A stretch of 48,812 nucleotides of DNA from the NCBI GenBank assembly GCA_943328785.2, contig CALQBJ020000002.1, positions 1-48,812 of the forward strand, given 5' to 3'. A program made the position numbers and the translations under genes. Shown in pieces: positions 17,290-41,915 of this stretch. Position 1 is the stretch's first letter. Each line of letters starts with the position of its first letter. Below the pieces are notes generated by a model. The model searched no databases. It was not told where the DNA came from and saw only the letters and a program-made list of their open reading frames with translations. Origin of the DNA: Bifidobacterium breve (GTDB taxonomy: Bacteria > Acidobacteriota > Vicinamibacteria > Vicinamibacterales > CAVVIG01).

Positions 17290-20220
17290 ATGAAACTCAG
17301 GACTCTGCTCGCGTTCATCCTTCTTCTCGCTGGAGCCGCACCCGCTCGCGCGCAGGTCGATCGCGCGACCGTGACTGGTACCATCCACGACCCGTCCGGC
17401 GCCGCCATCGAAGGAGCCCTCATCGTGGTCCGCTACGCGGCAACCGGACTCACCCGTCCGGCGCTCTCGAATGACCGGGGCGCGTTCTTCATCACCGGCC
17501 TGCCTGTCGGATCCGTGGAGGTGGAGGTGGGACGCGACGGGTTCCGGCCGATTCGGATCGACACCGACCTCAAGGTTGGCGAGACACGCACCGTCAACGT
17601 CTCGCTCGAGATCGCGGGTGTCGAGTCCACCGTCGACGTTGTGGCGCCGGCTGCTCTGGTCCGGAATTCGGCAAGCCTCGGCTCCGTGCTGGAGAACAAG
17701 GATGTGAGCAAGTTGCCCATCAACGGCCGCAACTGGGGCAACCTGATGGCGCTCATTCCAGGCGCCGTCGACACGGGCGGCGGCAACGGCTCGAGCGTGC
17801 GCTTCGTCGGGCACGGCGGCGATGACAACAACCTGCGCGTCGACGGCGTGGACGCGACGTCGGTGCGAGGCCAGAGCCAGGGCAAGAGCCGCCTGATGCT
17901 CTCGACCGACGCTATCGCGGAGTTCCGGGTGACGTCGGCGCTCTACAGCGCCGAGTCCGGCGGTTCGAGCGGCGGCCAGATCGAGATCGTGACCAAGGGA
18001 GGCACCAACGCCTTCCACGGCGGCCTGTTCGAGTACTTCCGGAACGGCGCACTGGACGCGCGGAGCCCATTCGATGGAGCGACGAAACCCGAGTTCCGCC
18101 TGAACCAGTACGGCGGCACGCTCGGCGGCCCGCTGCGCTCGGGGCGCACGTTCTTCTTCGGGTCGTACGAGGGGCTGCGCCAGCGGCAGGGACGGACCCA
18201 GATCGGGTTCGTGCCGTCGGCGGCGTTCCGCGCGGCCGCCGCGCCCGCGCTCAAGGCCATCCTCGACGCCTACCCGGAAGGACAGACGGTCGTCAACGCC
18301 AACGTCATGCAGTGGACGGGTGTTGCCTATGCGACCCAGAACGAAGATGTCGGCACCCTGCGCGTCGATCACCGCCTCTCGGACAGGCTGAGCGGCTACG
18401 TCCGGGTGAGCAAGAACGCGACGGACATTTTTACTCCCAGTTCCACACTGCCTACCGGCACGAAGAACCCGGATGCTCCGACGAGCGGGGTGCTCGATCT
18501 GCTCTTCCTCGTGAGTCCGCGCACGACCAACGAACTCCGAGTCGGCACCAACTACGCCGAGCCGCTGAACTCGCAGACCATCGGCGGCACGACCGACATC
18601 GGCGTGTCGGTTCCATCCTTTTCCACACTCCCGGCCCAGACCTTCCGGGTCGCCATCGGGCACTCCCAGTCGCTCGTCGACCAGTGGGCGACCTTTCGTG
18701 GCAAGCACACCATCAAGGCCGGTCTCGACCTGCGGCACATTCAGCTCGACATCCACGACGGTCCGAACGCCCAGGCCGGAACGCTCACCTACGCAAGCCT
18801 CGCGGATTTCCAGGTGAACAAGCTGAATACCGCGGAGTACTCGGCCGAACTGCCGAACAAGACGATGCGCAAGCTGTCGTACTTCATGTATGCGCAGGAC
18901 GAGTGGAAGCTCGGGCCGACGCTCTCGAGCAACATCGGGATGCGCTACGAGTACTACGGCGTGTTCAAGGAGATCAACGGCCTCGCCATTCCGTTCGACA
19001 TCATCAACTGTGGCGGCTACTGCGCACCGGGCTCGACCTTCTCCTATCCGGATCGGAACAACGTCGCGCCGCGCGTCAGCCTCGCCTGGGCGCCCGGCTC
19101 CGGGCGGACGGTGATCAGCCTTGGCACCGGGCTCTACTACGGAGACGCGCAACTGGGCGACCAGTACACGCCCGCCAACAACGACACCGAGCGATTCACG
19201 CTGTCGCAGGCGACGACGCCGGGGTTGGGCTTTCCGATCGACAAGTACCTCGCCCCTGGCACAGCGCTCGCGACCGCTCCGCGCTCGATGCCGCTCGACA
19301 AGCAGAACGAGCAGTCGCTCCAGTGGGGCGTGAATGTGCAGCGGGCGCTCGGCGCGCACCTCAGCGCGACCATCGGATACACCGGCCAGCGTAACAGTCA
19401 TGTCTTCAGCCGCACCTATGTCAACCTGCTCGATCCGGTGACGAAGCAGCGGCCGTTCCCAGCGCTCGACCAGATCGATGTCCGCGGGGCCGACGGCAAC
19501 TCGCGATTCCAGGGGCTGACGACCACGTTCAAAGTCAGTGCGTGGCACGGCCTGTCGGCGACGGCGAACTACATGCTGTCGCACGCGACCGACGACGGGT
19601 CGTCTGGCGGCGGCGGTGCGAACCCGGCCCAGAACGTGTCCTGCTTCTCGTGTGAATGGGCGGACAGCTCGATCGATGCACGTCACGTGTTCACCTCCTA
19701 CTTCTCGTACGAGCTGCCGTTCGCGAAGCAGCACCGCTTCCTGGGCGGGTGGCAGTGGACGGGAATCGCGACCGCGCGCACAGGCATGCCGCTCAACATC
19801 ACCGTGACACGCAGAGCGGCAGACATGCCGGACGGCAACACGTTGTCCGCGCAGCGCCCGGATCTGGTGCCCGGTGTACCGCTCTACCTGGACTACGCCA
19901 CGACCGGGAAGTGGCTGAACAGCGCAGCGTTCGCGGTGCCGGCGCCGGGGACGTGGGGCAACCTGCCGCGCAACGCCGTCCGCGCCCCTGGGCTCTTCCA
20001 GGTCGATACCGCCTTCACGAAACGGACGGCCATCAAGGGCGGTACCGGCGTCGAGGTGGGGATCGAGTTCTTCAACCTGTTCAACCGTCCGCAGCTCGGC
20101 ACACCGACCGCAAACACCAGCTCCGCGAACTTTGGTCGTATCACGACGCTGGCCAACAGCTCGCCCGTCGGCGTCGGCACGCCGCGACAGGTGCAACTGA
20201 TGATGCGTCTTTCGTTCTAG
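17290..20220 (+). CDS. TonB-dependent receptor with N-terminal carboxypeptidase-regulatory-like domain (TBDR1)
   Basis: Signal peptide, then TVTGTIHDPSGAAIEGALIVV...DRGAFFITGLPVG (CarboxypepD_reg-like). Plug-like region (LPINGRNW), a long barrel, and C-terminal MMRLSF. Confidence 0.9.
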   Translation: MKLRTLLAFILLLAGAAPARAQVDRATVTGTIHDPSGAAIEGALIVVRYAATGLTRPALSNDRGAFFITGLPVGSVEVEVGRDGFRPIRIDTDLKVGETRTVNVSLEIAGVESTVDVVAPAALVRNSASLGSVLENKDVSKLPINGRNWGNLMALIPGAVDTGGGNGSSVRFVGHGGDDNNLRVDGVDATSVRGQSQGKSRLMLSTDAIAEFRVTSALYSAESGGSSGGQIEIVTKGGTNAFHGGLFEYFRNGALDARSPFDGATKPEFRLNQYGGTLGGPLRSGRTFFFGSYEGLRQRQGRTQIGFVPSAAFRAAAAPALKAILDAYPEGQTVVNANVMQWTGVAYATQNEDVGTLRVDHRLSDRLSGYVRVSKNATDIFTPSSTLPTGTKNPDAPTSGVLDLLFLVSPRTTNELRVGTNYAEPLNSQTIGGTTDIGVSVPSFSTLPAQTFRVAIGHSQSLVDQWATFRGKHTIKAGLDLRHIQLDIHDGPNAQAGTLTYASLADFQVNKLNTAEYSAELPNKTMRKLSYFMYAQDEWKLGPTLSSNIGMRYEYYGVFKEINGLAIPFDIINCGGYCAPGSTFSYPDRNNVAPRVSLAWAPGSGRTVISLGTGLYYGDAQLGDQYTPANNDTERFTLSQATTPGLGFPIDKYLAPGTALATAPRSMPLDKQNEQSLQWGVNVQRALGAHLSATIGYTGQRNSHVFSRTYVNLLDPVTKQRPFPALDQIDVRGADGNSRFQGLTTTFKVSAWHGLSATANYMLSHATDDGSSGGGGANPAQNVSCFSCEWADSSIDARHVFTSYFSYELPFAKQHRFLGGWQWTGIATARTGMPLNITVTRRAADMPDGNTLSAQRPDLVPGVPLYLDYATTGKWLNSAAFAVPAPGTWGNLPRNAVRAPGLFQVDTAFTKRTAIKGGTGVEVGIEFFNLFNRPQLGTPTANTSSANFGRITTLANSSPVGVGTPRQVQLMMRLSF

Positions 20221-20239: not shown

Positions 20240-21760
20240 ATGACACCGTTCTCACGTCGAGACTTCCTCCGCAGCGCCGGGGGCGTCACGTTCCTGGCGC
20301 TGCTCCCGCAGGGGCCAGGCGCGTTCGCGGCGCCCGAACCCGCCGCTGGCCCGAGGCTGCCGCTCTTCACGGTGTTGCCGTACATCCAGCCCGGCTCGCA
20401 GAGCCGGCTGGCCCCCGGTGCGGACTCCATGGTGGTGGCGTGGCAGACCCAGGAGGCGCCGGCCGAGTTCCACGTCGAGTTCGGCGACGCTGGGGCCTTC
20501 GAGCGGCGAGCGACCGTCGTCTCGGCGGTGCGCTTCTCGGGGCGCGGAGGCGACGTCGAGCGCCGTCTGAACTGGCACGCCGAACTGACCGGGCTCGAGT
20601 TGGGCCGACGGTACGTCTACCGCGTCAGCGGCAACGGACAGGTGCTGGCCGAGGGGTTCTTCACCACCAGGCAGCCGCGCGGGCAACGCGTGCGCTTCGT
20701 GGCCTTCGGGGACAACTCCTACGGCGATCCATCCGACCGGGCCATCGCGTTCCATGCGCACGCGCAGCATCCGGACTTCGTGATGAACTGCGGCGACAAC
20801 GTGTACGACAGTGGGTTGGACAACGAATACCAGCGCTTCTTCTTCCCGGTCTACAACAGCGATGTCGCGCATCATCGTGTCGGCGCACCGCTGCTGCGCT
20901 CGGTGCCGTTCTACACCGTAATCGCCAACCACGACGTGCAGGACAAGGACGCGAACAATCACGAGACCGCCGACTTCGGGAAGAATCCGGACGCGCTGGC
21001 GTTCTATACGGCGATGCACCTGCCGCTCAACGGACCGGAGGTGCCGACCTATCCCACGCCAATCCAGGGTCCGCCTGACCGCATCGACGTGTTCCGTGCC
21101 GCCGCAGCGTCGCGGTTTCCCCGGATGGCAAACTACTCGTTCGACTACGGGGATGCCCACTTCCTGTGCCTCGACTCGAACCTGTACACCGACCCCAACG
21201 ATCCGACGTTGAGGCGCTGGATCGAGGCCGACCTCTCATCAACCGACGCCGTGTGGAAGTTCGTCGTCTGCCACCATCCGCCGTTCAACGTCGGTGGTGA
21301 ACACTTCCAGGTGCAGCACATGCGCGTGCTGGCTCCCATCTTCGAGGCGCACGGCGTGGACATCGTGTTGTCCGGCCACGAACACAACTACCAGCGCCCG
21401 CGCCCGCTCCGCTTCATGCCGTCTGGGCCGGGGCTGTCGGCCCTGGTCGCCGGCCGCGACCGGAAGGTGCCCGGCCGATTTACTGTCGATCGCCACTTCG
21501 ATGGCGTCACCCATACCCTGCCAGACGGCGTGCTCTACGTCGTCAGCGGTGCCGGCGGAAAGCACCTGTACGACCCGGGTTACACGGACGCTCCGTCCCG
21601 CTGGACGCACGCCGAGGACAGCCATGAGGACTATGTCGTGCGCATGGTCACCGACCGGCATTCGCTGACAGTCTTCGATCTCGACGGCGATCGTCTGACC
21701 ATGCGCCAGGTCGACGAGGATGGGGTGGAGTTCGATCGGCTCGTCATCACGAAGGCGTGA
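20240..21760 (+). CDS. Tat-exported purple-acid-phosphatase-like metallophosphoesterase
   Basis: Twin-arginine signal SRRDFLRSAGG and an N-terminal PAP-type beta domain. Metallophosphoesterase blocks GDNSYG, GDNVYDSG, ANHD, VCHHPPF and GHEHNYQR. Confidence 0.88.
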   Translation: MTPFSRRDFLRSAGGVTFLALLPQGPGAFAAPEPAAGPRLPLFTVLPYIQPGSQSRLAPGADSMVVAWQTQEAPAEFHVEFGDAGAFERRATVVSAVRFSGRGGDVERRLNWHAELTGLELGRRYVYRVSGNGQVLAEGFFTTRQPRGQRVRFVAFGDNSYGDPSDRAIAFHAHAQHPDFVMNCGDNVYDSGLDNEYQRFFFPVYNSDVAHHRVGAPLLRSVPFYTVIANHDVQDKDANNHETADFGKNPDALAFYTAMHLPLNGPEVPTYPTPIQGPPDRIDVFRAAAASRFPRMANYSFDYGDAHFLCLDSNLYTDPNDPTLRRWIEADLSSTDAVWKFVVCHHPPFNVGGEHFQVQHMRVLAPIFEAHGVDIVLSGHEHNYQRPRPLRFMPSGPGLSALVAGRDRKVPGRFTVDRHFDGVTHTLPDGVLYVVSGAGGKHLYDPGYTDAPSRWTHAEDSHEDYVVRMVTDRHSLTVFDLDGDRLTMRQVDEDGVEFDRLVITKA

Positions 21761-21849: not shown

Positions 21850-23283
21850 ATGGCACAGCCGGACGGTGGCAAGGTCTACGTGGTCGACACGAGTGTTCTC
21901 GTCTCTGCTCCCGACGCCCTTCAGAACCTGACAGACGGCAATACCGTCATCATCCCGTTTCCTGTCCTCCAGGAACTCGACAAGCGCCGCACCGACTCGA
22001 GCGGCGTCGGCTACACCGCCAGACAGACCATCCGCTTTCTCGACCAGCTCCAGTCCGGCGCCACGCCCGAGATGCTTCGCGACGGCATCCCGATGCATGG
22101 GGGGCGCGTCTGCTTCCACGGCGGTGAGCTCGACGTGTCACGCGCCTGGCCCGGCTTCTCGCCCGGCTACGCCGACGATGTGATCATCATGCTGGCCAGT
22201 TCGCGGCAGGAGTCACACCCCGACATCCCGGTCTCCATCGTCACGCGCGATGCGGCGATGCGCTGCAAGGCGCGGGCGCGCGGTGTTGCCGCCGAGGACT
22301 ACTACAGCGATCGTCCGGTCACCTCGCCCGACAAGTTCTACTCGGGGCGCATCCGTATCGACGTGCCCGAAGAGCGGGCCGGACTGTTGTCGGCGCTCCA
22401 CGTCGACCAGCGGCTGGCGGTGTCGGAACTGGCCGACTACACCGACGTGTCCGAGTTGCTGGTGAACCAGTGCTGCGAACTGCGCGTGAACGGCAACGGC
22501 AAGGCGGCGTGGGGCATCTACAAGCAGCACGACGGCGTTGGCTACCTCAGGCGCGTCAACCTCAAGCACGGTGAACGTTTCGGTCCCTGCAATCCGGAAC
22601 AGTCGTGCGCCCGTGAGTTGATGCTCGACGAGCAGACGCTCATCGTGTCGCTGGTCGGGATGGCCGGCACCGGCAAGACGCTCATGGCGTTGCTGTCGGC
22701 ATTCGAACTGTACCGCGCAGGGCGGGTCTCGAAGATCGAGGTCTACCGGCTGAATGCGGAAGCCGGTCGCGGGCTCGGGTTCCTGCCGGGCAACCTGGGC
22801 GACAAGATGGCGCCGTGGGCCAAGCCGATCATCGACAACCTGGATTTCATCATCAGGCGAATGGGGAACGGGTCGCGCTTCAGCAACGCGGTGGCCGACC
22901 CGCAGGGCGAGCGTAGCCCCGGGAACGGGAACGGCGGCGGGCCGTCGGCAACGGTCGAGGAGCTGCTGGCGCGCAACATCCTCGAGATCGCCCCGATCAA
23001 CTACCTGCGCGGACGCTCCATCCACGACGCCGTGGTCATCGTGGACGATGGGCAGAACCTGACGCAAGAGGATATGAAGCTCGTGCTGACCCGCGCGGGC
23101 GAGGGGACGCGCGTCATCCTGACGGGCGACCCCGATCAGATCGACCGCACCGAGGTCGACGCCCTGTCGAACGGCCTCGTCCAGGTGGTGGAGCGCTTCA
23201 AGGGGCAGCCGACGTTCGCGCACCTGACGATGAAGGCCGTCGTCCGGTCACGCATCGCGGAGCTTGCCGCGACGCTGCTGTAG
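21850..23283 (+). CDS. phoH2: PIN-domain / PhoH-like ATPase fusion (PhoH2 / YlaK type)
   Basis: N-terminal PIN (VYVVDTSVLV...PFPVLQELD), Walker A GMAGTGKT, and the PhoH-like C-terminal part (LTGDPDQIDR). AGGAG RBS upstream. Confidence 0.9.
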   Translation: MAQPDGGKVYVVDTSVLVSAPDALQNLTDGNTVIIPFPVLQELDKRRTDSSGVGYTARQTIRFLDQLQSGATPEMLRDGIPMHGGRVCFHGGELDVSRAWPGFSPGYADDVIIMLASSRQESHPDIPVSIVTRDAAMRCKARARGVAAEDYYSDRPVTSPDKFYSGRIRIDVPEERAGLLSALHVDQRLAVSELADYTDVSELLVNQCCELRVNGNGKAAWGIYKQHDGVGYLRRVNLKHGERFGPCNPEQSCARELMLDEQTLIVSLVGMAGTGKTLMALLSAFELYRAGRVSKIEVYRLNAEAGRGLGFLPGNLGDKMAPWAKPIIDNLDFIIRRMGNGSRFSNAVADPQGERSPGNGNGGGPSATVEELLARNILEIAPINYLRGRSIHDAVVIVDDGQNLTQEDMKLVLTRAGEGTRVILTGDPDQIDRTEVDALSNGLVQVVERFKGQPTFAHLTMKAVVRSRIAELAATLL

Positions 23284-23334
23284 CGAGCGACCCGGCAGGT
23301 GCAGCGGGAGCGGGCCGTGCGCCCGACCCGCGAC

Positions 23335-23565
23335 CTAGGGGGTGGCGCCGAGTCGCAAGGTCCTGGTGACGCCAGCCACCTGCACCACGACCGACCGCGG
23401 CGCCGGCAGCAGTTCCCAGAGGAAGACCTTCGTGCCACGCACGTGGCTGCGCACGCGGCAGGCCGCATGGCGACACTCGATGACCCGCGTGTGGGCAACG
23501 CCGGTGTCCGGCGAGCAGGAGACGTAGGCGGTGCAGCCGCAGGGCAGGGGAAGCGTGTAGGACAT
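23335..23565 (-). CDS. Hypothetical small Cys/His-rich protein
   Basis: 76 aa, high GC3. MSYTLPLPCGCTAYVSCSPDTGVAHTRVIECRHAACRVRSHVRG has 5 Cys and 3 His in the first 42 residues. No SD; a -10-like TAGAAC lies 7 nt upstream of the ATG, so the mRNA may be leaderless. Confidence 0.5.
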   Translation of the reverse strand: MSYTLPLPCGCTAYVSCSPDTGVAHTRVIECRHAACRVRSHVRGTKVFLWELLPAPRSVVVQVAGVTRTLRLGATP

Positions 23566-23861
23566 GCTGTCTGTTCTACGCCGGCGCTGTGACGAACGGG
23601 CGACAGCGGTTCGTGGTCGCGGTAAAAGGTCGGCCCGCGGAGGTCACGACCTGTTCCAGTTGAACCGCGAGCGCCGATTCGCGTGCGGTCCCGCCAGCAT
23701 CACCGTGGTCTCGGTGCTCTCGAGCGCGACGTCGACGTGCTGGTCGACATCGTGCGCGAGACGACGAGGCCGGTCGATCAGGCGGAGGGTCGGATTCGTC
23801 GAACGCCCGTCGCTGAATATTTACGCGCCGTTCGCCACCGTTTCGCGCGCGCGTTACCAGC

Positions 23862-23926
23862 GGTCTCCATACTCAGGTGGACGATAGCGCCGGGCCCACG
23901 GGCGGGCCGGCCCTCCACTGGAGACC
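23862..23926 (+). promoter_or_regulatory. GC-rich nested hairpin in the PHP gene leader that pairs with the ribosome-binding site
   Basis: Outer perfect 8-bp stem GGTCTCCA (23862-23869) / TGGAGACC (23919-23926), which contains the GGAGA SD 2-6 nt before the ATG at 23929. Inner stems are GTGGA/TCCAC and GCCGG(G)CCC/GGGCCGGC. Confidence 0.35.
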
Positions 23927-23928
23927 CG

Positions 23929-24846
23929 ATGAAACTCGACGCGCACGTCCACACCAACTACTCGGGCATGACCACGATCTGGCCGCTCTCGCTCATCATG
24001 CGGGAGTCCTACAACACGCCGGAACGGGTTTACGCGCTGGCCAAGGCGCGTGGCATGGATCTGGTGGCCATCACCGACCACGACACGATCGCCGGTGCCC
24101 TCTCGCTGGCACACTATCCTGACGTCTTCGTCGGGTGCGAGGTGTCGGCGTCCTTTCCAGGGCAACCGGTGGACGTGCACCTCGGCGTCCTCGACATCAC
24201 CGAGCGTCAGTTTCGCCAGATCGACCTGCTGCGCGGCGACGTGCTCGAACTCGTGCAGTACCTGCGCGATGAAGCCATCTTCACGACGATCAACCATGTG
24301 GCCTCGCAGGTGAACGGACGCCTCACGCCGACGCACATTGCGGCGCTGCTGCCGTGGGTCGATGCCTTCGAGGTGATCAACGGATCGCGCCTCGGCCGCC
24401 AGAACCGGACCGCGCAGGCGCTGGCCGCCTCCGCGTCGAAGCGCACGATCGGCGGCAGTGACGCCCATACCGGCCGCGGCATTGGCCGCACGTGGACAGA
24501 AGTGCCGGGTGCCTCGGATCGCACCGAGTTCATGGCCGGACTCCGCGCCGGGCGCGCGGTTGCCGGTGGCCGGCAAGGCAGCTACTTCACGATGGCGTCC
24601 GACATGCTGCGCTTCGCCGGGCGCTTCTATGAGGAGCGCACCCTCGATGCCGTGCGCAGTCCGCTCGAGTGGCAGCGGCACCTCTTTCTCGCCTGCAGCG
24701 TGATCGGCCTGCCACTGCTGACGCTGCCGCTGCTCGGGGCGATGGTGCACTTCGTCGAGGAGGCGCGCTTCAACCAGTCGCTCCTCATCGACCTCGTCGA
24801 GCGGCCGGCGATCGCCCTTACCACGCCACTACCAGAGGTGGCGTAG
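23929..24846 (+). CDS. PHP-domain metal-dependent phosphoesterase with a C-terminal hydrophobic anchor (PHP1)
   Basis: MKLDAHVHTNYS, VAITDHDT, GCEV, INH and GGSDAH are PHP-family metal-ligand motifs. C-terminal helix HLFLACSVIGLPLLTLPLLGAMV. Internal ATG of track ORF 23683..24846. Confidence 0.85.
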   Translation: MKLDAHVHTNYSGMTTIWPLSLIMRESYNTPERVYALAKARGMDLVAITDHDTIAGALSLAHYPDVFVGCEVSASFPGQPVDVHLGVLDITERQFRQIDLLRGDVLELVQYLRDEAIFTTINHVASQVNGRLTPTHIAALLPWVDAFEVINGSRLGRQNRTAQALAASASKRTIGGSDAHTGRGIGRTWTEVPGASDRTEFMAGLRAGRAVAGGRQGSYFTMASDMLRFAGRFYEERTLDAVRSPLEWQRHLFLACSVIGLPLLTLPLLGAMVHFVEEARFNQSLLIDLVERPAIALTTPLPEVA

Positions 24847-26009
24847 TGCTCAGGGTCGGCATCTTCACGGACAACGACTTCGAGAAGGTCAACGGCGTCA
24901 CCACGTCGCTCCGCGCCGCCGTCGAGCATGCACCGGCCGACCTGCACCTGCGCGTCTACACCTGCGACGCGAGGGGTGCCGACGAGCCGACCTACCTGGC
25001 CATTCGTGCGCATGGCATCGGCATCCCCTTCTACAGCGAGATGAAGATGTACGTCCCGCCGGTCCGGGCGCTGCTGCGGCACGCGGCGGCCGATCGCCTC
25101 GACGTCATTCATCTGACCACGCCGGGCCCCGTGGGGTTGGCAGCCATGTACGTGGCGTCGAAACTGCAACTGCCGATGGTCGGCAGTTTCCATACCCACC
25201 TGGCGGAGTACACGACGCGGCTGAGCGGCTCGCGCCGGCTCGGACAGTTGATGCAGGAGTACATGCGGTGGCCCTACGGGAAGTGTCGCCAGATCCTGAC
25301 GCCGTCGGAATCGACGCGGCAGTTGCTGATCGACGCAAAGATCGACCCGGCGAAGCTGCGCCTCTGGGAGAGGGGGGTGTCGACGGTCAGGTTCGATCCG
25401 GCGCGGCGCTCCGAGCGGCTACGCGCCGAATGGGGTGTGTCGGAGAGGCGACCGGCCGTGCTCTACGTCGGGCGCCTGTCGGTCGAGAAGGGGCTGCGCG
25501 AAATGGGGGCGGTTCGGCGGTCCCTCGAGGCCCGGAGCATCGCGCACCGGTTCGTCTTCGTCGGCGACGGCCCGATGCGCGGTGAACTGGAACGACTGGC
25601 GCCGGACGCGGTCTTCACGGGCAACAGAACGCCAGACGAGGTGGCCGTGGCCATGGCGTCGGCGGACCTGTTCGTGTTCCCGAGCCGCACCGACACTGCG
25701 GGCAACGTCGTGCTCGAAGCGCAGGCGAGCGGGCTGCCGGTGCTGGTGACCGATGAGGGGGGGCCGCTCGAGAACATGCTCGACGGCCGCACCGGCGTCG
25801 TCTGCGCCTCCACCCGCGAGCTGTGCCGTCAGGTGCTGGAGTTGTGCGGGCGTACGGCGCGCCGGCAGCAGATGGGTGTGCAGGCGCGCGACTACGCGCG
25901 CGGCCGCCAGTGGCAGACGGCGCTCGCCCCGCTCTATCAGTCCTACCGCGAGGTGGCCGTCTCGCCAGCCAGCGTGTGGGCGATGAAGTCGGGCGTCGTC
26001 GCCGCCTGA
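24846..26009 (+). CDS. GT4-family glycosyltransferase (SqdX/SQD2/Agt-like N-terminus)
   Basis: GTG at 24846 overlaps the PHP stop by 1 nt (TAGTG). LRVGIFTDNDFEKVNGVTTS, VLYVGRLSVEKG and FVFPSRTDTAGNVVLEAQASGLPVLVTDEGG (E-x7-E region). Confidence 0.9.
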   Translation: MLRVGIFTDNDFEKVNGVTTSLRAAVEHAPADLHLRVYTCDARGADEPTYLAIRAHGIGIPFYSEMKMYVPPVRALLRHAAADRLDVIHLTTPGPVGLAAMYVASKLQLPMVGSFHTHLAEYTTRLSGSRRLGQLMQEYMRWPYGKCRQILTPSESTRQLLIDAKIDPAKLRLWERGVSTVRFDPARRSERLRAEWGVSERRPAVLYVGRLSVEKGLREMGAVRRSLEARSIAHRFVFVGDGPMRGELERLAPDAVFTGNRTPDEVAVAMASADLFVFPSRTDTAGNVVLEAQASGLPVLVTDEGGPLENMLDGRTGVVCASTRELCRQVLELCGRTARRQQMGVQARDYARGRQWQTALAPLYQSYREVAVSPASVWAMKSGVVAA

Positions 26010-26558
26010 TCCTGCAGTCGCTGTGCATGCAGCGAGTCGAGCAGTGAGAAGAATCGCGGCACCACCAGCTCTTCGTGAAAGGTGGCCGCACGATCAAGCG
26101 CCACGCCGGCCCGCATGGCGGCCCGCACCGGCTGTTCAATCACCTGACGCACCGCGGCGGCGAAGGCTGCCTCGTTCGTCATGAGCGTGTCCGTCATGTC
26201 CAGCAGGAGACCGAGATTCTTCTCGCGCGACAACCGGCCCACGTACACCAGCAGGCGCGTGCGTGTGTCCCCATCCGTCAGTTCGATCAGCGACTGACGC
26301 GTCTCACCGCCAGGCAGCCGCCTGAACGCCTCGGCAGACAACCCGGGCGGGCAGACGTGCACCACGTGCTGACGGTTCTCAGGCAGCACCGCCCGCAGTT
26401 CGTCCGCGGTGTCGTGCGAGTTCGCCACGTGGTAGTCGAAGAGCGGCGCGTAGACCGGTCGCCTGAACCAGCGTGCGGTAGACCGAACGCACGTCGCCAG
26501 ACGTCGGATGCCAGGCGTTGGTGAGGTGCAGCGTCTTGAGTGGACGTTGTGGTGTCAT
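25943..26558 (-). pseudogene. Decayed GT4 glycosyltransferase remnant (frameshifted, internally deleted)
   Basis: The N-terminus MTPQRPLKTLHLTNAWHPTSG is in one frame (26558 down to about 26480). It continues in another frame as RPVYAPLFDYHVANSHDTADE...LLVYVGRLSREKNLGLL. The E-x7-E catalytic block is missing, total length is roughly half of a GT4, and the 3' end overlaps the intact GT4 gene by 67 nt. Confidence 0.55.
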
Positions 26559-26620
26559 GACAGTCCCGTCGCCGCCGCGTCGCCACGGCACGGCCGTGAG
26601 GACGCGGCGGGCACGGGTGC

Positions 26621-29464
26621 CTAGAAGCCGATGCGGGCGCCGAGCTGGAGCTGGCGCGGACCCCCGAAGCGGGCGGTCGACGGGGCGAACAGCGGGGTGC
26701 CGGCGGTGGCCACCGGCGCGGCCGCAGTCCCGTAAACGCTGATGGCGTCGTTGCCGAAGGTCCGGTTGGCCGCGCGGGTGGCGTTGAAGAGTTCGGCCAT
26801 CACATCGACCCTGGCACGACCGACGCGAAGCGTCTTCATCAGGCGGAGGTCGAGGTTGAAGAACGACGGCTGCCTGAAGGCATTGCGGTCCGAGACGCGC
26901 CCGTTGATGATCGCGCGGTCGTTGTCGTCGTTGGCGTCACCCTGCTGGTCGCTGCCAATCACCGCGGTGTAGGGCATACCCGAACGCGCGATCATGACCG
27001 CGCCGATCGTCCAGCCGCCCTTCACGTCGAGCACGGTGGAGACGTTGACGTTGTGCCGCACATCCTGCTTCGACCAGGTGTACTCGGAGCCAGGGTCGAA
27101 GACGTTGAGCGTCGTCTCGCGGCTGAAGTTGCGCTCGTTCGAGTCGTCGTCCTTGTTCGACGCCAGCGTGTAGTTGACCTGCGTGAAGAGCCGGCCGGCG
27201 CGCTCGGAGAGCGTCAGGACGAGCGCATGGTAGTCGGAGCGAGCTGTCGACTCGTTCACTTCGATCTGTGCGAACCGGGTGTCGGGCCGTACCCGGGAAT
27301 AGATCGGCGTGCCGGCCGCGTCATAAGTCGGTGGGAAGAGGTTCCGGTCGAGCCGGCGCTGCAGGTTGGTCGTCTTGGCCAGGATGTAGCTGGCCGAGAC
27401 CGTAGTCGAGGCGCCGAGTTGCTGTTCGAGCGCCGCCGACCCCTGGAACGTGCGCGGGTTCGTGAACGCCGGATCGAACCCGAACACGCGCTGCGCCGGA
27501 ATGGTGATCGCGCCGGGCAGCAGCGTCAGCGCCTGCCCGCTCTGCACCAGCGTGAGGATGCTGGCATCGGTGCGGCTGTCGACCGAGACGGCCGTGAAGC
27601 CGTTGTCGGTGAAGACGCGCTGGAACAGGTTGGCCGGCGTGCGGGCGTCGTACAGGCCGCCCGACAACCGGACGACCGAGCGATTGCCACCGTTGACGTT
27701 CCAGGCCAGACCGGCGCGCGGCTGCCACATCGCCAGGTCGTTGGGGATGCGCTGCGTGTAGGACAACGCTGGATTGGGCCGCGTCGGCTGCGGGTTCCAC
27801 TGGCCATCCCAGCGGAGCCCGAGATTCAGGGTGACGTCGCCGAGCGCGATCCGGTCCTGCACGTAGAGGCCCGCTTCCTTCTGCGTCGCCGAGTAGACGA
27901 GGTCGGCCGGATCGAAGCCGGCCACCGTCTGGCGGTAGCGGCTGATGCGTCCCGCCAGGTAGTTGGCGAGCGACGTGTAGTCGAAGCGGCCGAGGGTGTT
28001 CGACTCACGCTGCTGCTCCGAGGGCGTGATGTTCAGGTCGATACCGGCGCGGAGTTGGTGCGCACCGCGCGCCATCGTGAGGTTGTCCGACAGCTGGTAG
28101 CGGGTGTTGTTGAAGACGCGCGGCCGGCCGGTGTCGCCGCCGAGCGTGCCGAATCCGGTGATGGCAATCTGCGGCACATCGGCGTTCGGCGCCTCGTCGC
28201 GGTTGTCCGTGGCCCACTGACCGCGGAGTTCGTTCACCGCCGTGGCGCCGAGGACCGACTGCCAGCTCGCCTTCACGCTGTGGCTCCGGTTCCTGCGCGT
28301 ATAGTTCGCGCTCTCGGCAACATCCTGCTGCGGCGAGTCGAAGTTGAAGTTGGTCCCGCTCAGCCGGCTGGCGGTGACCTGCACGTTCAGGGTCTGACCT
28401 GGCGCAACGTTCACGTCCGAACGGCCGAAGAACGCCGTCGGGTTGTTGGTGCCGCGCTTCTCGCCCTCGAGCGCCTTCAGCGAGTCGGGCACCACGACAC
28501 CCGCGGCCTGCGGCTGGAACTTCACGACGAAGGGCACACGCAGGTAGTTCTGCTCGATGGCCGCGAAGTAGAACGCCTTGCTCGGGACCAGGGCGCCGCC
28601 GAGTGATCCGCCGAACTGGTTCTGCTGGTTGTTCAGCTTCTGGTCGAACGCGTCTGCCGACGTCAGTGTCCGGTTGCGGTTGAAGTAGAAGAGGTCGCCG
28701 CGCGTCGTGTTGGTGCCGGACTTCGTCACCACGTTCACAAAGCCGGCCGACGTCCGGCCCACTTCGGCGCCGAGGCCGGAGCGCACCACCTGGAATTCAT
28801 TGACCGCCGACTGCGGGAAGAAGAACACGGCCTCGTTCCCGCCGCGCTGGTTGCCCTGCAGCGGGTCGTTGAAGTCGGTGCCGTCGATCGAGACGTTCGA
28901 GTTGATCGACCGCTGACCGGAGATGATCATCCCCGAGCGGTCGGACTCCTGGATGATGGCCGGCGTCAACTGCGCGAACTCGGGGAAGCTCCGTCCTCGA
29001 ATCGGCAGGTCGTCGATCGCCGCCAGCGGGATGTTCGTGCCCGAGGCCTGGCCAGAGAGGTCGAGCACCGGCGCGGCTGCCGATACGGCGACCGACTCGG
29101 CCACTCCGGCCACCGACAACGTCAACGTCAGGCCGGCGGTCTCGCCGACCCGGAGCAGCACCCGCTGCTGATGGGTGGCGAAGCCCGACGCGTCCACCGC
29201 GATCTCGTACTGGCCGACCGGGAGTCCGGACAGCTGGAATCGACCCGAGCCGTCGCTGACGGCGGCACGCTGGAAGCCCGTATCGACGCTGCGAAGTCGC
29301 ACCGGCGCACCGGCGATCGTCCCGCCGTTCGGGTCGAGCACCGTGCCGGCGACGGCGGCGGCGCCGGTCTCGGCCTGCGCGAAGAGCGGAGTGGCGATGG
29401 TGCCTGCCGTGGCGCACGCCAGGAAGACTCCGAGGAAGAGTGGTCGAACAGTCGATCGCGTCAT
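26621..29464 (-). CDS. TonB-dependent receptor with carboxypeptidase-regulatory-like domain (TBDR2)
   Basis: Signal peptide, VAGTVLDPNGGTIAGAPVRL...GSGRFQLSGLPVGQYEI, plug-like LPIRGRSF, and C-terminal LGARIGF. GAGGTG RBS. Confidence 0.9.
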   Translation of the reverse strand: MTRSTVRPLFLGVFLACATAGTIATPLFAQAETGAAAVAGTVLDPNGGTIAGAPVRLRSVDTGFQRAAVSDGSGRFQLSGLPVGQYEIAVDASGFATHQQRVLLRVGETAGLTLTLSVAGVAESVAVSAAAPVLDLSGQASGTNIPLAAIDDLPIRGRSFPEFAQLTPAIIQESDRSGMIISGQRSINSNVSIDGTDFNDPLQGNQRGGNEAVFFFPQSAVNEFQVVRSGLGAEVGRTSAGFVNVVTKSGTNTTRGDLFYFNRNRTLTSADAFDQKLNNQQNQFGGSLGGALVPSKAFYFAAIEQNYLRVPFVVKFQPQAAGVVVPDSLKALEGEKRGTNNPTAFFGRSDVNVAPGQTLNVQVTASRLSGTNFNFDSPQQDVAESANYTRRNRSHSVKASWQSVLGATAVNELRGQWATDNRDEAPNADVPQIAITGFGTLGGDTGRPRVFNNTRYQLSDNLTMARGAHQLRAGIDLNITPSEQQRESNTLGRFDYTSLANYLAGRISRYRQTVAGFDPADLVYSATQKEAGLYVQDRIALGDVTLNLGLRWDGQWNPQPTRPNPALSYTQRIPNDLAMWQPRAGLAWNVNGGNRSVVRLSGGLYDARTPANLFQRVFTDNGFTAVSVDSRTDASILTLVQSGQALTLLPGAITIPAQRVFGFDPAFTNPRTFQGSAALEQQLGASTTVSASYILAKTTNLQRRLDRNLFPPTYDAAGTPIYSRVRPDTRFAQIEVNESTARSDYHALVLTLSERAGRLFTQVNYTLASNKDDDSNERNFSRETTLNVFDPGSEYTWSKQDVRHNVNVSTVLDVKGGWTIGAVMIARSGMPYTAVIGSDQQGDANDDNDRAIINGRVSDRNAFRQPSFFNLDLRLMKTLRVGRARVDVMAELFNATRAANRTFGNDAISVYGTAAAPVATAGTPLFAPSTARFGGPRQLQLGARIGF

Positions 29465-29989: not shown

Positions 29990-32836
29990 ATGCGTCTGAC
30001 CTTCATGATGTGGTGTGTCTGGCTGTCGCTGCTGGCCGTTCTGGCTCCGGCGAGTGCGCAGACGATTGGTGTGACGACCGGAGCGATCAACGGCCGTGTC
30101 GTCGATGACAGCGGTGCGGTGGTGCCGGGTGTCACCGTGTCGGTGACCGGCGCGGCGCAGATGGGCGCGCGCGCCGGGCTGACCGACGAGCAAGGCGTCT
30201 ACCGCGTGCCTGGGCTGGCGCCTGGCACCTACCGCGTCGCTTACGAACTTGCCGGTTTCGGCAGCACGGCCCGCGAGGGGATCGAGGTGGCCGTTGGCTT
30301 CACCGCGACGGTGAACGTCACCATGGGCGTCGCCTCGATCGAGGAGTCGCTCACGGTGCAGGGCGCCTCGCCCGTTGTGGATGCGATGGCGACCCGCATC
30401 CAGACCAACTACACCGCCGAGCGGCTGGCGTCGCTGCCGAGTTCACGCGATATCTGGTCGATCATGGCCGCGTCCCCGGGGGTCCGACAGGCCGTGGTCG
30501 ATGTCGGCGGCGCCTCGGCGGGCAGCCAGTCGCAGTTCGTCACCTACGGCACCCGTGCCCAGAACCAGCCGATGATCGAAGGCATGCTGATGTCGCAGAT
30601 CGGCTCGGCCGGCGGGTCGGTCACCTTCTACTACGACTACGGTTCGTTCCAGGAAGTCTCGGTGAACGCGGCTGGCAACTCCGCCGACATGGCCATGCCT
30701 GGCGTGCAGTTCCAGTTCATCAGCAAGTCGGGCGGCAACGAGTTCCACGGCACCGCACTGGCGAACTACGAGAACCAGAAGATCCAGTCGACCAACATCG
30801 ACGCGGCCCAGCTCGCGGCTGGCATCAACAGCCGCGAGGACAACCGCCTCTTCCGCTTCTACGATCGCAACGCCGACATCGGCGGCCCGCTGAAGCGCGA
30901 CAAGGTGTGGTGGTATACATCGTTCCGAGACGAGAAGTCGCAGGCCCGCTACGCCAACTTCCCGGTGCAGCCGTTCGAGACCCAGTTGACGAACTACACC
31001 GGCAAACTCACCTACCAGCTGTCGAGCCGGGACAAGCTGATGGCTTACGGGCAGGCCGGCAAGAAGCTGCAGCCGTTCCGCCAGGACACCGGCACGATCG
31101 GCGGCCCGGGCGGCTCGCGCACCTTCGCCTTCTTCGATAGCGCCAATTCGACGGCGAACCAGGACTACATTGGCTGGGTCTGGAAGGGCGAGTACAACCG
31201 CGCCCTCAGCGACTCGGCGTTCGCCGAGATTCGCGCCGGCCGTGTCGGCTACACCTGGAAGACCTCCAACTACACCGACGAAACGCGGCGCGAGGACGCT
31301 GGCAACCTTCGCGTCAGCGGCGGCAACACCCAGTGGCGCGAGGATGTCGCGCGCAACCAGGTGCTCGGCTCGGTGAGCCTGTTCAGGACCGGCTGGCTCG
31401 GCTCGCACAACCTGAAGGCGGGGTTCGAGCTCTACCGCGATACGCAGGAGCGCGACCAGATCGGCTACCAGGGCAACGTGCTCCAGGCCTTCAACAACGG
31501 CGCCCCGACCGAGGTGCGCCTCTACCAGCCGTCGTTCTCCATCAATCGCCTCCTCGCGGGCGGCCTCTATGTCACTGATGGTTGGAATCCCACGGACCGG
31601 CTGAACCTCAACCTCGGCGTCCGCATCGACCACTACCGTTCGTACCTGCCGGCGCAGTCGCGTCCCGCGAGCCAGTTCGCGACGGCGGCCGACTTCGCCG
31701 CGGTCGACGACGTCATGACCTGGAACTTGCCGGCGCCTCGCTTCGGCATCACCTACAAGGTGGACACGGTCGGCAAGACGGTCCTCAAGGCGAACGCGGG
31801 CCGCTACTGGTGGAATCCGGACGTCAACGTCGCCGGGAGCGTGAACCCGAACATCGCCACGGCCTACGAGCGGTATGCCTGGACCGACAGCAACGCCGAC
31901 CGCACCTGGCAGCCTGGGGAGCAGGGGCGACTGATTGCACGAGTCGGCGGTTCCGGCCTGGCGCTCGACCCGAACCTGAAGAACAGCTACACCGACGAAC
32001 TGGCGACGTGGCTCGATCACGAACTGTTCCCGAACACGCAACTGCGCACCGGCCTCGTCTGGCGCGGACAGCGGCAGCTCCGCCAGACGCTGAACATCGC
32101 CCAGCCGTTCGCGGCGTTCAACGTGCCGGTGTCGGTGACTGACCCCGGCCCGGACGGCCGCGCAAACACGGCCGACGACGGATCGGCGCTGACGCTGTTC
32201 AATCTCGATCCGGCGTACCTCGGCAAGGTGAACAATCTCGTGCAGAACGTCGACTCGAAGAACGACTACTACACGTGGGAGATCACGGCGAACCGGCGCA
32301 TGGCCCAGGGCTGGTCGCTCATGGCGACCTACGCGATCACCTGGAACCGCGAGAACCTGGCGTCGCCAGGCGCCGCCGCCAACCCCGTGCGTTCGGCCGA
32401 CGCCGCTGTGAATCCGAACGATCTGGTCAACGCCAGCGACGACGGGCGCTATTCCTACGCGCTGTGGAACGCCAAGGTGCACGCCGTTGTGCCGCTGCCG
32501 TGGCAGTTCCGCCTGTCGCCGATGCTGCGGGCGCAGGCCGGGCAGCCGTTCGGCCGGACCTTCGTGACCGCGCTGAACTACGGCAGCCAGCGTGTGCTGG
32601 CCGAACCCATTGGTTCGCGGCAGCAGGCTCACGTGGTGATTGCGGACGCGCGGATCGAGCGGCTGTTCAAGATTCCCGGTCGCAGCAACCGCCTGAGCGC
32701 GCAGGTCGATGTCTTCAACCTGCTGAACGCCAACCCGGTCGACTTCACGACCTGGAGCTCTGGCTCCAGCTTCCTGCGGCCGACCAGCGTGGTGCCGCCG
32801 CGCATCGTCCGCGTCGCGCTGAAGTTCGACTGGTAA
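29990..32836 (+). CDS. TonB-dependent receptor with carboxypeptidase-regulatory-like domain (TBDR3)
   Basis: Internal ATG at 29990 preceded by AGGAG with an 8-nt spacer. Signal peptide MRLTFMMWCVWLSLLAVLAPASA, INGRVVDDSGAVVPGVTVSV...GVYRVPGLAPGTYRV, and C-terminal ALKFDW. Confidence 0.9.
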   Translation: MRLTFMMWCVWLSLLAVLAPASAQTIGVTTGAINGRVVDDSGAVVPGVTVSVTGAAQMGARAGLTDEQGVYRVPGLAPGTYRVAYELAGFGSTAREGIEVAVGFTATVNVTMGVASIEESLTVQGASPVVDAMATRIQTNYTAERLASLPSSRDIWSIMAASPGVRQAVVDVGGASAGSQSQFVTYGTRAQNQPMIEGMLMSQIGSAGGSVTFYYDYGSFQEVSVNAAGNSADMAMPGVQFQFISKSGGNEFHGTALANYENQKIQSTNIDAAQLAAGINSREDNRLFRFYDRNADIGGPLKRDKVWWYTSFRDEKSQARYANFPVQPFETQLTNYTGKLTYQLSSRDKLMAYGQAGKKLQPFRQDTGTIGGPGGSRTFAFFDSANSTANQDYIGWVWKGEYNRALSDSAFAEIRAGRVGYTWKTSNYTDETRREDAGNLRVSGGNTQWREDVARNQVLGSVSLFRTGWLGSHNLKAGFELYRDTQERDQIGYQGNVLQAFNNGAPTEVRLYQPSFSINRLLAGGLYVTDGWNPTDRLNLNLGVRIDHYRSYLPAQSRPASQFATAADFAAVDDVMTWNLPAPRFGITYKVDTVGKTVLKANAGRYWWNPDVNVAGSVNPNIATAYERYAWTDSNADRTWQPGEQGRLIARVGGSGLALDPNLKNSYTDELATWLDHELFPNTQLRTGLVWRGQRQLRQTLNIAQPFAAFNVPVSVTDPGPDGRANTADDGSALTLFNLDPAYLGKVNNLVQNVDSKNDYYTWEITANRRMAQGWSLMATYAITWNRENLASPGAAANPVRSADAAVNPNDLVNASDDGRYSYALWNAKVHAVVPLPWQFRLSPMLRAQAGQPFGRTFVTALNYGSQRVLAEPIGSRQQAHVVIADARIERLFKIPGRSNRLSAQVDVFNLLNANPVDFTTWSSGSSFLRPTSVVPPRIVRVALKFDW

Positions 32837-37176: not shown

Positions 37177-37183
37177 CAGTGGC

Positions 37184-38797: not shown

Positions 38798-38829
38798 GTG
38801 TACGCCTCCTTTAGTGAGTGCAGGAGGGC

Positions 38830-38852
38830 AGGATATCGATCGCCTGTGACAG
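38830..38852 (-). promoter_or_regulatory. Pho-box-like half-site CTGTCAC 10 nt upstream of a -10-like TATCCT, upstream of phoD
   Basis: Minus strand TCGTCGCGAAG-CTGTCAC-AGGCGATCGA-TATCCT, 33-55 nt upstream of the phoD ATG. Confidence 0.25.
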
Positions 38853-38899
38853 CTTCGCGACGATGGCGTGACGTGTGGGCGACGACTGTCGCCGTGGGG

Positions 38900-41693: not shown

Positions 41694-41915
41694 ATGTTCG
41701 ACCTGAATCTTGCGTCTGGGGGCCACGTTCGTCACTACACCGTTGTGCTGGCTGGTGAGGCCGGCTGGGAAGTGCGGGTGGAAGAAGATCGGGCGGTCCG
41801 GTGGAGTGAAACCTACGAGGACTGGCACCGGGTTGAGCGCAGCCTGGCGCGGGTGAAGCGAGAGATCTCCGAACTGCTCGCGCGCGGGTGGACGATCGAA
41901 TCCGCTAGTCGATGA
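41694..41915 (+). CDS. Hypothetical small protein (73 aa)
   Basis: ATG preceded by AGAGAGG. Globular-looking sequence (GWEVRVEEDRAVRWSETYEDWHRVERSLARVKREI). Its 3' end overlaps the convergent phoB-like gene by 11 nt. Confidence 0.45.
   Translation: MFDLNLASGGHVRHYTVVLAGEAGWEVRVEEDRAVRWSETYEDWHRVERSLARVKREISELLARGWTIESASR

Follow-up and report, generated by a model that had tools for sequence, protein, structure and literature searches.

INTRODUCTION

The replacement of phospholipids by phosphorus-free glycolipids is a major microbial answer to phosphate scarcity, and knowledge of the remodelling enzymes comes for the most part from Proteobacteria, cyanobacteria and marine groups. The closest described system is the PlcP–Agt pair of Sinorhizobium, Agrobacterium, SAR11 and Phaeobacter, in which the gene of a calcineurin-like metallophosphoesterase lies directly upstream of that of a family 4 glycosyltransferase (GT4). 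Phosphate starvation induces that pair through PhoB and the Pho box, and it turns diacylglycerol released from phospholipids into monoglucosyl- and glucuronosyl-diacylglycerol. Here we describe a gene pair of similar layout, in which a phosphoesterase of the PHP fold is translationally coupled to a GT4. It lies in contig CALQBJ020000002.1 of a member of the Vicinamibacterales (Acidobacteriota), of which positions 1 to 48,812 were analyzed; this whole stretch of 48,812 nucleotides is termed the window. We propose, at a probability of about 0.5, that the pair is a non-orthologous analogue of PlcP–Agt that would convert phospholipid precursors into a phosphorus-free glycolipid.

PlcP adjoins a variety of diacylglycerol (DAG)-consuming enzymes across genomes (PMC4796936). 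Agt belongs with GTcp of SAR11 to a DAG-dependent clade with a His/Asp dyad, the Asp standing in place of the catalytic Glu of MshA, and a D256E mutant loses more than 90% of its activity (PMC8231724). The clade has the motifs FPSxTDTFG and GRVAxEKN, which are described as common in GT4, and contacts DAG through Arg163 and Trp320; its members share >25% identity, and GTcp is 46–58% identical to the homologues listed (PMC8231724).

Other described enzymes resemble one or both parts of the pair. The PHP proteins of the TrpH/RNase AM type (COG0613; structures 7ug9, 9etk, 2yb1 and 3o0f) are soluble, and act on pAp or 5′-phosphorylated RNA. Among GT4 enzymes acting on glycerolipids, GpgS of Pseudomonas aeruginosa (family NF053787) is the N-acetylglucosamine (GlcNAc)-phosphatidylglycerol synthase (PMC12713373). 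In TPS–TPP, in sucrose-phosphate synthase (SPS) with an SPP-like domain and in MpgS–MpgP, the glycosyltransferase and the phosphatase that act one after the other are adjacent or fused, the phosphatases being of the HAD type and the enzymes soluble.

RESULTS AND DISCUSSION

The PHP–GT4 gene pair

The PHP protein of 305 aa is encoded at 23929–24846 (+), with an ATG start at 23929 preceded by GGAG, and the GT4 of 387 aa, a retaining enzyme of the GT-B fold, at 24846–26009 (+). The bases 24840–24849 read GGCGTAGTGC, and contain a TAGTG element (24844–24848, +) in which the stop codon of the PHP gene (TAG, 24844–24846) and the start codon of the GT4 gene (GTG, 24846–24848) overlap by the one G common to both. 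The likely ribosome-binding site of the GT4 gene, GAGGTG at 24834–24839, is placed 6–12 nt before the GTG within the 3′ end of the PHP gene. The list of open reading frames (ORFs) runs the GT4 frame back to 24669, but its orthologues are 387 aa long and align with 100% query coverage (98 and 88% identity), which fixes the start at 24846. The coordinates and the overlap had been given correctly in an earlier sequence-only reading of this DNA, as can be read directly from the bases. Esterase and transferase thus occupy one operon, as in PlcP–Agt, and the junctions in orthologues are also tight.

How general is this coupling? A genome scan with the PHP profile, with one genome per species, gave 80 loci (loci are designated here by L numbers); their architectures were sorted by tblastn and clustering of ORFs, and the counts rest partly on manual reading. 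Three architectures were found among the 80: pairs in Vicinamibacterales, PHP–GT4 fusions, and a clade in which the PHP gene is accompanied by a family 28 glycosyltransferase (GT28) and a PAP2 lipid phosphatase. In Vicinamibacterales the GT4 gene directly follows that of PHP in 8 of the 10 close orthologue loci of the scan (L001–L008). The tight junction is also present in L082–L085 and L089, which were obtained from protein searches and have differing flanking genes. There is a 1-nt overlap in L082 and L089, and a gap of 0–7 nt in L001, L004, L083 and L084.

Elsewhere the two are joined in a single protein of ∼800–830 aa. PHP and GT4 lie in one frame in 21 of the 80 scanned loci, the hosts being Desulfobacterota, relatives of Geobacter, Solirubrobacterales and some Acidobacteriota. 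There are many matches of ∼600–840 aa among the 150 closest PHP representatives, and GT4 domains are placed C-terminal to the PHP match in 7 of the 10 examined. A search with the Desulfobacter fusion returned >100 full-length proteins of 813–845 aa; the fusion proteins bear only the generic database name ‘glycosyltransferase’. When the PHP and GT4 of the window are joined end to end they are colinear with the fusions (PHP–linker–GT4), which have an extra insertion of ∼100 residues ahead of the hydrophobic segment discussed below. Since tight junctions recur with differing flanks, and fusions exist elsewhere, the pairing is not due to chance. The coupling of the two genes, and the co-occurrence by which it might be judged, had been raised in the sequence-only reading; the conserved adjacency in Vicinamibacterales orthologues and the fusion in other lineages bear it out. 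Judging from these sequences, PHP–GT4 coupling is ancient and robust.

The third architecture accounts for ∼40 of the 80 loci, in the Terriglobia ‘Acidoferrum’, Solibacteraceae, Bryobacteraceae, Dormiibacterota and Methylomirabilota. Its PHP protein is standalone, ∼295 aa in length and ∼40% identical to that of the window, with the same hydrophobic tail. The GT28, of 401 aa, is encoded upstream of PHP and divergently; it matches Pfam MGDG_synth and Glyco_tran_28_C, and its best NCBIfam matches are UgtP-type diglucosyl-DAG synthases. Directly downstream of PHP and co-directional with it in ∼38–40 loci is a gene for a PAP2 lipid phosphatase (4e-25). L054 links the architectures: its PHP and PAP2 genes share 4 nt, and 0.7 kb beyond them there is a GT4. 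Unlike the GT4 of the window, the GT28 is inverting, divergently transcribed and not translationally coupled, and it is not found in the window. Yet a transferase related to UgtP/YpfP and MGDG synthase takes the place of GT4 as the neighbour of PHP in ∼40 genomes, and this exchange points to the same class of acceptor, DAG. As PHP is joined to a lipid glycosyltransferase of one family in the fusions and adjoins one of an unrelated family elsewhere, it most likely acts on a lipid substrate common to both; action on something specific to either transferase is unlikely.

A PHP-fold esterase unrelated to PlcP

The PHP protein scores above the cutoff of 21.3 bits against Pfam PHP_C (9.8e-12, 44.7 bits), and below the cutoff against both the Pfam PHP core model (21.0 against 26.4 bits) and the NCBIfam CehA/McbA metallohydrolase domain (53.5 against 80 bits). 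A sequence search of the PDB gave no significant match, and comparison of folds alone was successful. The AlphaFold (AF2) model (pLDDT 86, pTM 0.82) is the distorted TIM barrel of the PHP superfamily, and was matched by Foldseek at a probability of 1.00 to the PHP structures of RNase AM, BAD_1165, PsfC, TM0559, Cv1693, EndoQ and Pol III PHP, the best match being RNase AM (7ug9, E = 7e-10). Identity to these proteins is 15–19%. The full set of ligands expected of the superfamily is present, with an N-terminal HxH, a later His, Glu/Asp and DxH; H6, H8, D50, H51, E71, H84, H123, D178 and H180 are invariant in alignments of 13 and 45 sequences that include standalone and fused forms. As the catalytic HxH (residues 6–8) sits at the very start of the protein, there is no signal peptide. 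A total of 2172 homologues were found, of which the closest are in Vicinamibacterales; the name given to the family by JGI is ‘predicted metal-dependent phosphoesterase TrpH’.

The Pfam and Foldseek matches support the claim, made in the sequence-only reading, that the esterase of the pair is unrelated to PlcP. It has the amidohydrolase-like TIM barrel of a PHP enzyme rather than a calcineurin-like fold, and the sole Metallophos protein near the pair is a TAT-exported, purple-acid-phosphatase-like enzyme that is not a PlcP. Because the esterase fold differs, the pair is not a member of the PlcP–Agt system, although by analogy it probably works like it. In each an esterase family is found beside different DAG-consuming enzymes and the module is placed among Pho-type genes; PHP differs further in having a conserved hydrophobic segment and in being often fused to its transferase. 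A PlcP–Agt fusion was not met in PMC4796936 or PMC8231724, and no search was aimed at one.

The window PHP shares its fold and its metal ligands with the TrpH/RNase AM-type enzymes, which are its best structural matches. The closest solved relatives (RNase AM, Cv1693 with AMP, and BAD_1165) handle nucleotides or the 5′ ends of RNA, and there are weak NCBIfam matches to 3′,5′-nucleoside bisphosphate phosphatase and RNase RNM. PHP might thus be directed at nucleotides, either hydrolysing the UDP released by GT4, which would lessen product inhibition and recover inorganic phosphate, or converting CDP-DAG, an intermediate at the branch point of phospholipid synthesis, into phosphatidic acid (PA), which a PAP2-like phosphatase would take to DAG. 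The PAP2 just downstream of PHP in ∼38 loci could perform that second step. However, the identity to nucleotide and RNA enzymes is only that given above, and neither the Vicinamibacterales pairs nor the fusions have an adjacent PAP2. Moreover, cytoplasmic UDP is normally recycled by kinases, and a dedicated bacterial UDPase has little precedent. PHP also departs from the TrpH/RNase AM enzymes in its helical, hydrophobic C-terminal extension of 85 residues and in its genomic tie to lipid glycosyltransferases. We consider a nucleotide-directed role very unlikely, and its CDP-DAG variant amounts to a special case of the lipid remodelling proposed here.

A conserved hydrophobic segment as a putative membrane anchor

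Within the C-terminal extension, residues 251–273 (24679–24747, +) form a Pro/Gly-rich hydrophobic segment, HLFLACSVIGLPLLTLPLLGAMV, that has no charged residue. Standalone and fused relatives alike retain the segment, Pro267 being invariant, and it is followed by a conserved HF.EE.RF motif. In the AF2 model residues 219–298 are helical, and the helix is broken at Gly260–Pro262 to give helices 248–259 and 261–298.

The sequence-only reading took the segment to be a hydrophobic helix that anchors PHP in the membrane. The segment is indeed present and conserved, but its position inside the fusions makes a transmembrane helix unlikely. There the homologous segment lies ∼30 residues ahead of the GT4 domain and after a PHP domain that lacks a signal peptide, so that it is placed between two cytoplasmic domains, the GT4 domain being cytoplasmic because it must reach cytoplasmic UDP-sugars. 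A single crossing would put PHP and GT4 on opposite sides of the membrane, and the simple transmembrane reading was rejected on this ground. A monotopic or re-entrant, interfacial anchor is therefore the more likely arrangement, as the alignments suggest, and the Gly–Pro break of the modelled helix is consistent with it.

The glycosyltransferase and its likely acceptor

The transferase is plainly a member of GT4. It matches four Pfam GT4/GT1 models at 1e-12 to 1e-25, with scores of 83.8, 79.0 and 89.4 bits for models of the Glyco_transf_4/Glycos_transf_1 type against cutoffs of 26–29. The AF2 model (pLDDT 91) has the GT-B fold, with TM-scores of 0.7–0.8 to MshA, BshA and PimB′, and its Foldseek neighbours are MshA, GlgM, PimB′, BshA, PglA, SPS and PimA.

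Its sequence motifs are those of the Agt/GTcp clade. H116 is invariant, as is D283 within the motif FPSRTDTAG (278–286), and GRLSVEKG is found at 209–216; this is the His/Asp dyad with the GRxxxEK- and FPSxTDTFG-type motifs, with Ala for Phe in the last. The fusions carry FPSTTDTFG exactly. A conserved RGV arginine (R176, ≥90%) lies 60 residues past the His, compared with 59 for Arg163 in GTcp, and near the C-terminus there is an aromatic residue, W356 in the window and Phe in the fusions, that may correspond to GTcp Trp320; both equivalences are by spacing only. The enzyme is longer than GTcp (387 against 334 aa), and its likeness to Agt is by motifs. A glycerolipid-type, Agt-like enzyme is thus supported at the level of motifs, and it is at that level that the likeness to the Agt branch claimed in the sequence-only reading holds. 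The label SqdX, the name of a sulfolipid synthase, is unsupported, since there is no sqdB-like gene, for a UDP-sulfoquinovose synthase, in the window. No SqdB-type NAD-dependent epimerase/dehydratase was found in the 24 products scanned with Pfam between 11.8 and 48.8 kb, and the genes at 0.6–11.5 kb appear to be leuC-, bioB/F/D- and citrate-synthase-like from reading of the N-termini of their ORFs.

The top three NCBIfam matches of the GT4 are all lipid glycosyltransferases, namely GpgS at 124 bits (residues 82–370), IagA/BgsA at 79 and the alpha-monoglucosyl-DAG (MGlcDAG) synthase at 76 bits, with non-lipid models close behind. The lead of GpgS, the GlcNAc-phosphatidylglycerol synthase, raises the possibility that the head group is glycosylated, after the model of GpgS or of PimA (which makes PIM1). 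PHP would then complete a phospholipid, taking phosphatidylglycerol phosphate (PGP) to phosphatidylglycerol (PG) or phosphatidylinositol phosphate to phosphatidylinositol (PI), and GT4 would glycosylate the head group to yield a glycophospholipid. PimB′ and PimA are among the solved structures closest to GT4, a gene like that of a PI-specific phospholipase C (PI-PLC) lies near the pair in L084, and the membrane segment and lipid neighbourhood fit this scheme as they fit the formation of a phosphorus-free glycolipid. Yet the NF053787 score is only a quarter of the cutoff of 480 bits, and neither the gpgD deacetylase nor the gpgF flippase gene adjoins the pair, GT4 having a phosphoesterase as partner instead. 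The Asp dyad and TDT motif are features of the DAG-dependent Agt/GTcp enzymes, the alternative partner GT28 is of the DAG-using MGDG-synthase/UgtP type, and a glycophospholipid saves no phosphorus and fits poorly with a Pho-type context. We regard head-group glycosylation as unlikely.

The structural matches raise a different possibility. MshA, GlgM, BshA and SPS are the top Foldseek matches of the GT4, the PHP family includes phosphomonoesterases such as histidinol phosphatase (2yxo and 4gyf are among the Foldseek matches), and the fusion of synthase and phosphatase is well known from TPS–TPP, SPS–SPP-like and MpgS–MpgP proteins. GT4 could accordingly glycosylate a phosphorylated small molecule in the manner of MshA, SPS or GlgM, with PHP removing the phosphate, as in the bifunctional synthase/phosphatases of compatible-solute or thiol-cofactor synthesis. 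However, the phosphatase of the present fusions is of the PHP type and N-terminal, and the uncharged segment of 23 residues is conserved between the domains, ahead of the transferase. The same PHP subfamily is partnered with a GT28 lipid transferase and an integral-membrane PAP2 phosphatase, enzymes of lipid metabolism recur as neighbours, and Asp stands where MshA has its catalytic Glu, as is the case in the DAG-dependent GTcp. The structural likeness itself does not discriminate between acceptors, as PimA, PimB′ and WaaG score nearly as high. A soluble pathway is thus decidedly unlikely.

An anti-phage conflict system was also considered. The GT4 matches Pfam GT4-conflict only in part (29 bits), the PADLOC defence models gave no match to PHP and none to GT4, and that reading was dropped.

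Lipid and phosphate genes around the module

Genes of glycerolipid metabolism recur near the module. A phosphatidylserine (PS) decarboxylase is found in L001, L084/85 and L065, a membrane-bound class III aminotransferase with PEMT or another methyltransferase in L001, L084 and L009, an LGT-like protein in L065, a DAG-kinase-like protein (DAGK_cat) in L083 and the PI-PLC-like protein in L084. In Geoanaerobacter the neighbours are a PS decarboxylase and an LGT-like protein. The cluster of PS-decarboxylase-like, aminotransferase and methyltransferase genes beside PHP (L001 3888–7881, L084 11124–15191, L009 7950–10771 and L065 9907–11993) is a candidate pathway for a head group or an aminolipid.

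These neighbours bear on the possibility that the pair belongs to synthesis of envelope polysaccharide or lipopolysaccharide, with a polyprenyl-linked or lipid A/core structure as the acceptor of GT4, and with PHP trimming phosphate from that glycolipid. JGI names the GT4 ‘glycosyltransferase involved in cell wall biosynthesis’, enzymes of exopolysaccharide and teichuronic acid synthesis and of the WaaG type are weakly matched in NCBIfam, some loci have a GT2 and a second GT4 in the vicinity, and the PAP2 partner also resembles undecaprenyl-diphosphatases. But neither in the window nor in most loci does a polysaccharide export, flippase, polymerase or sugar-nucleotide cluster accompany the pair; glycerolipid enzymes are there instead, and in the window the second GT4 has decayed while PHP–GT4 is intact. 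We judge an envelope role to be highly improbable.

The window is a phosphate-scavenging island, as the sequence-only reading held. It contains PhoU with a PstB-like ABC ATPase (11850–13363, −; Pfam PhoU 3.8e-49, ABC_tran 1.5e-30), the TAT-exported purple-acid-phosphatase-like metallophosphoesterase noted above (20240–21760, +; Pfam Metallophos, Pur_ac_phosph_N and TAT_signal) and PhoH2, with PIN and PhoH ATPase domains (21850–23283, +; Pfam PhoH 7e-48, PIN_4 3e-23). Pfam further identified an NPP/phosphodiesterase (32841–34403, +), PhoD (37184–38797, −) and Ppx (38900–40579, −), and the gene order of the NPP to Ppx stretch (32841–40579) is the same in L089. The window also holds two OmpR-type regulators, one kinase, a SixA-like phosphatase, a porin and four TonB-type outer-membrane proteins. 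Pho-type genes are similarly found near orthologous pairs, with ppk and ppx in L001, PstS-like, PhoX and Ppx in L082, Ppx, CHAD and SixA in L083, a phytase-like gene in L084, and PhoH2, NPP and PhoD in L089. PhoH2 is near PHP–GT4 in two Vicinamibacterales genomes (the window and L089, 1599–3044), and directly follows a Desulfobacterales fusion in L087 (11072–12373); this nearness could reflect shared regulation or chance.

By contrast the GT28 clade is found near ftsA/ftsZ, CutC and a copper ATPase, and behind most Desulfobacterales fusions there is a radical SAM gene. Because these neighbourhoods are mostly not Pho-type, the link to phosphate looks lineage-specific, and a glycolipid module of general purpose may have been put to remodelling under phosphate starvation in particular lineages. 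The radical SAM protein (Radical_SAM with Fer4_12, 412–441 aa) lies directly after or near the fusion in L086 (10493–11773), L088 (10516–11754) and L087 (12636–13961), and might be a lipid-modifying partner of it.

The region upstream of the operon

Between phoH2 and the PHP gene there is a gap of 645 bp, in which a 76-aa Cys-rich ORF (MSYTLPLPCGCTAYVSCSPDTG...; 23335–23565, −) is encoded on the opposite strand. It has no Pfam or PADLOC match, and L089 has a called 76-aa gene in the same place, with 86% identity to it. Since this conserved gene separates them, PHP–GT4 is not co-transcribed with phoH2. A scan of the whole window with Rfam found no RNA family, which excludes a riboswitch in the gap; no RNA-family or defence-system match thus competes with the lipid-remodelling function.

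The probable promoter or regulatory region of the operon (23820–23873, +) was located by alignment of the upstream regions of orthologues. The likely −10 hexamer is CATACT (23868–23873), and the 60 nt ahead of it include TTTACGCGC, an element shared by the orthologous promoters, as well as three CGTTnnC repeats at a spacing of 10–13 bp. Scanning of 23200–26700 revealed no sigma-70 promoter consensus (no −35), and a single terminator-like hairpin, no more than chance would give. Upstream of PHP the pattern CGTYAY-N11-ATAST is found exactly once in each of the window, L001, L002, L005 and L082, and the 88 loci have no other copy of it. The L002 and L082 repeats are CGTACAT-N4-CCGTCAT, and resemble the E. 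coli Pho-box consensus. The region fits an activator-dependent promoter, a fit that does not prove Pho control.

A proposed function and the evidence weighed

For the substrate and reaction type of the PHP enzyme, the sugar, the membrane topology and the regulation by phosphate, we infer the following scheme. PHP and GT4 would form a two-enzyme module, or in many lineages a single bifunctional protein, on the cytoplasmic side of the inner membrane, with a glycosyl-DAG-type lipid as its product. The PHP domain would be held at the membrane by the conserved Pro-rich hydrophobic segment, and its di- or trinuclear metal site would strip PA, phosphatidylethanolamine/PG or CDP-DAG of phosphate or of a phosphorylated head group to leave DAG; head-group removal, PA dephosphorylation, CDP-DAG hydrolysis and PGP hydrolysis are all candidate reactions. 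The GT4, as an Agt/GTcp-like, retaining enzyme with a His116/Asp283 dyad, would transfer a hexose or hexuronic acid from its UDP-sugar to the DAG. In this freshwater member of the Vicinamibacterales, the sequence of which comes from metagenomes of lake water, the operon, set in a phosphate island, would probably swap phospholipids for glycolipids when phosphate is scarce.

We favour this function because of the membrane segment, the partnership with GT28 and PAP2, the lipid-metabolic neighbours and the Asp of the dyad. Lipid remodelling had been suggested in the sequence-only reading, and it is supported in part by the coupling, the glycerolipid-type GT4, the non-PlcP esterase and the phosphorus island.

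A number of observations weigh against it. The nearest solved PHP structures, at the low identity given above, act on nucleotides or RNA and none on a lipid, while the nearest solved GT4 structures (MshA, GlgM and SPS) use phosphorylated soluble acceptors; it is for these two reasons that we put our confidence no higher than stated at the outset. Fusions of phosphatase and synthase are classic for compatible-solute pathways. Every curated lipid-glycosyltransferase score of the GT4 is far below its equivalog cutoff, and the presence of PAP2 in the GT28 clade would make a PA-phosphatase role of PHP redundant there. Two Vicinamibacterales orthologues, L009 and L010, are without an adjacent GT4, and beyond Vicinamibacterales most neighbourhoods are of other than Pho type. 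The upstream pattern with one mismatch occurs at four sites in the window, a number equalled in 6 of 100 shuffles and thus not an enrichment. Finally, metatranscriptome matches to the PHP gene are 150-nt fragments from three metatranscriptomes, covering ∼5% of words.

More broadly, we suggest, at somewhat less than even odds, that this PHP subfamily is an unrecognised class of membrane-interfacial glycerolipid phosphoesterase (a phospholipase C, PA phosphatase or CDP-DAG hydrolase) and a functional counterpart of PlcP–Agt. Often fused to a glycolipid synthase, it would allow a phospholipid or a precursor to become a glycosyl-DAG on one and the same polypeptide. The subfamily comprises thousands of sequences from Acidobacteriota, Desulfobacterota, Actinomycetota and other phyla, and the module rests on a large uncharacterised protein family with generic database names. 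In the literature searched no paper joins the PHP domain, a glycosyltransferase and a glycolipid, and none ties the PHP fold to lipid phosphatase or phospholipase C activity, in agreement with the remark in the sequence-only reading that a lipid role had not been assigned to PHP proteins. Nothing relevant on Vicinamibacter polar lipids was found by titles and abstracts.

If correct, the proposal would provide the first lipid substrate for the PHP fold, explain the large unannotated family of ∼800-aa ‘glycosyltransferase’ fusions, and supply a remodelling counterpart in phyla without a known remodelling enzyme. The module would then mark lipid remodelling at the genetic level in sulfate reducers and in Acidobacteriota, a group abundant in soils and lakes. 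For converting phospholipid into glycolipid with one enzyme, the natural fusions are attractive as well.

Further features of the window

The GT4 gene is convergent with a decayed second GT4, GT4b (25943–26591, −), which is present as two ORF fragments and overlaps the 3′ end of the GT4 gene by 67 nt. The relic matches residues 1–35, 175–262 and 362–436 of an intact 436-aa orthologue in L089 at 63–80% identity; it is frameshifted and its catalytic core is deleted. Where GT4b is intact, in L089 and L083, it is paired with a 184–188-aa protein of no known family, and this partner is gone from the window.

Upstream of the pair, region 23566–23790 of the window is short of ∼2.7 kb relative to the close relative L089 (3328–6300), comprising a 414-aa gene, an 85-aa gene and CorA. 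In L089 CorA is directly upstream of PHP, and in L084/L085 it is one gene off.

One of the four single-mismatch sites in the window, CGTCAC-N11-ATAGC (42678–42699, −), is 70–90 nt upstream of an OmpR-type regulator gene (41905–42609, −). This could represent autoregulation by a PhoB-like factor, an idea that the site statistics do not support.

Four TonB-type receptors with CarboxypepD_reg and OMP beta-barrel domains are encoded within 30 kb (17290–20220, 26621–29464, ∼30020–32836 and 46679–48812), of which that at 26621–29464 (−) is extra relative to L089. Two of them directly precede secreted phosphoesterases, the purple acid phosphatase and NPP, which suggests receptor–enzyme pairs for the uptake of organic phosphate. 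Lastly, genes for a DUF4097 protein and for a multihaem c-type cytochrome that has HEAT repeats (34394–37176, −) are placed between NPP and PhoD, odd company for phosphatase genes, and the order is the same in L089.

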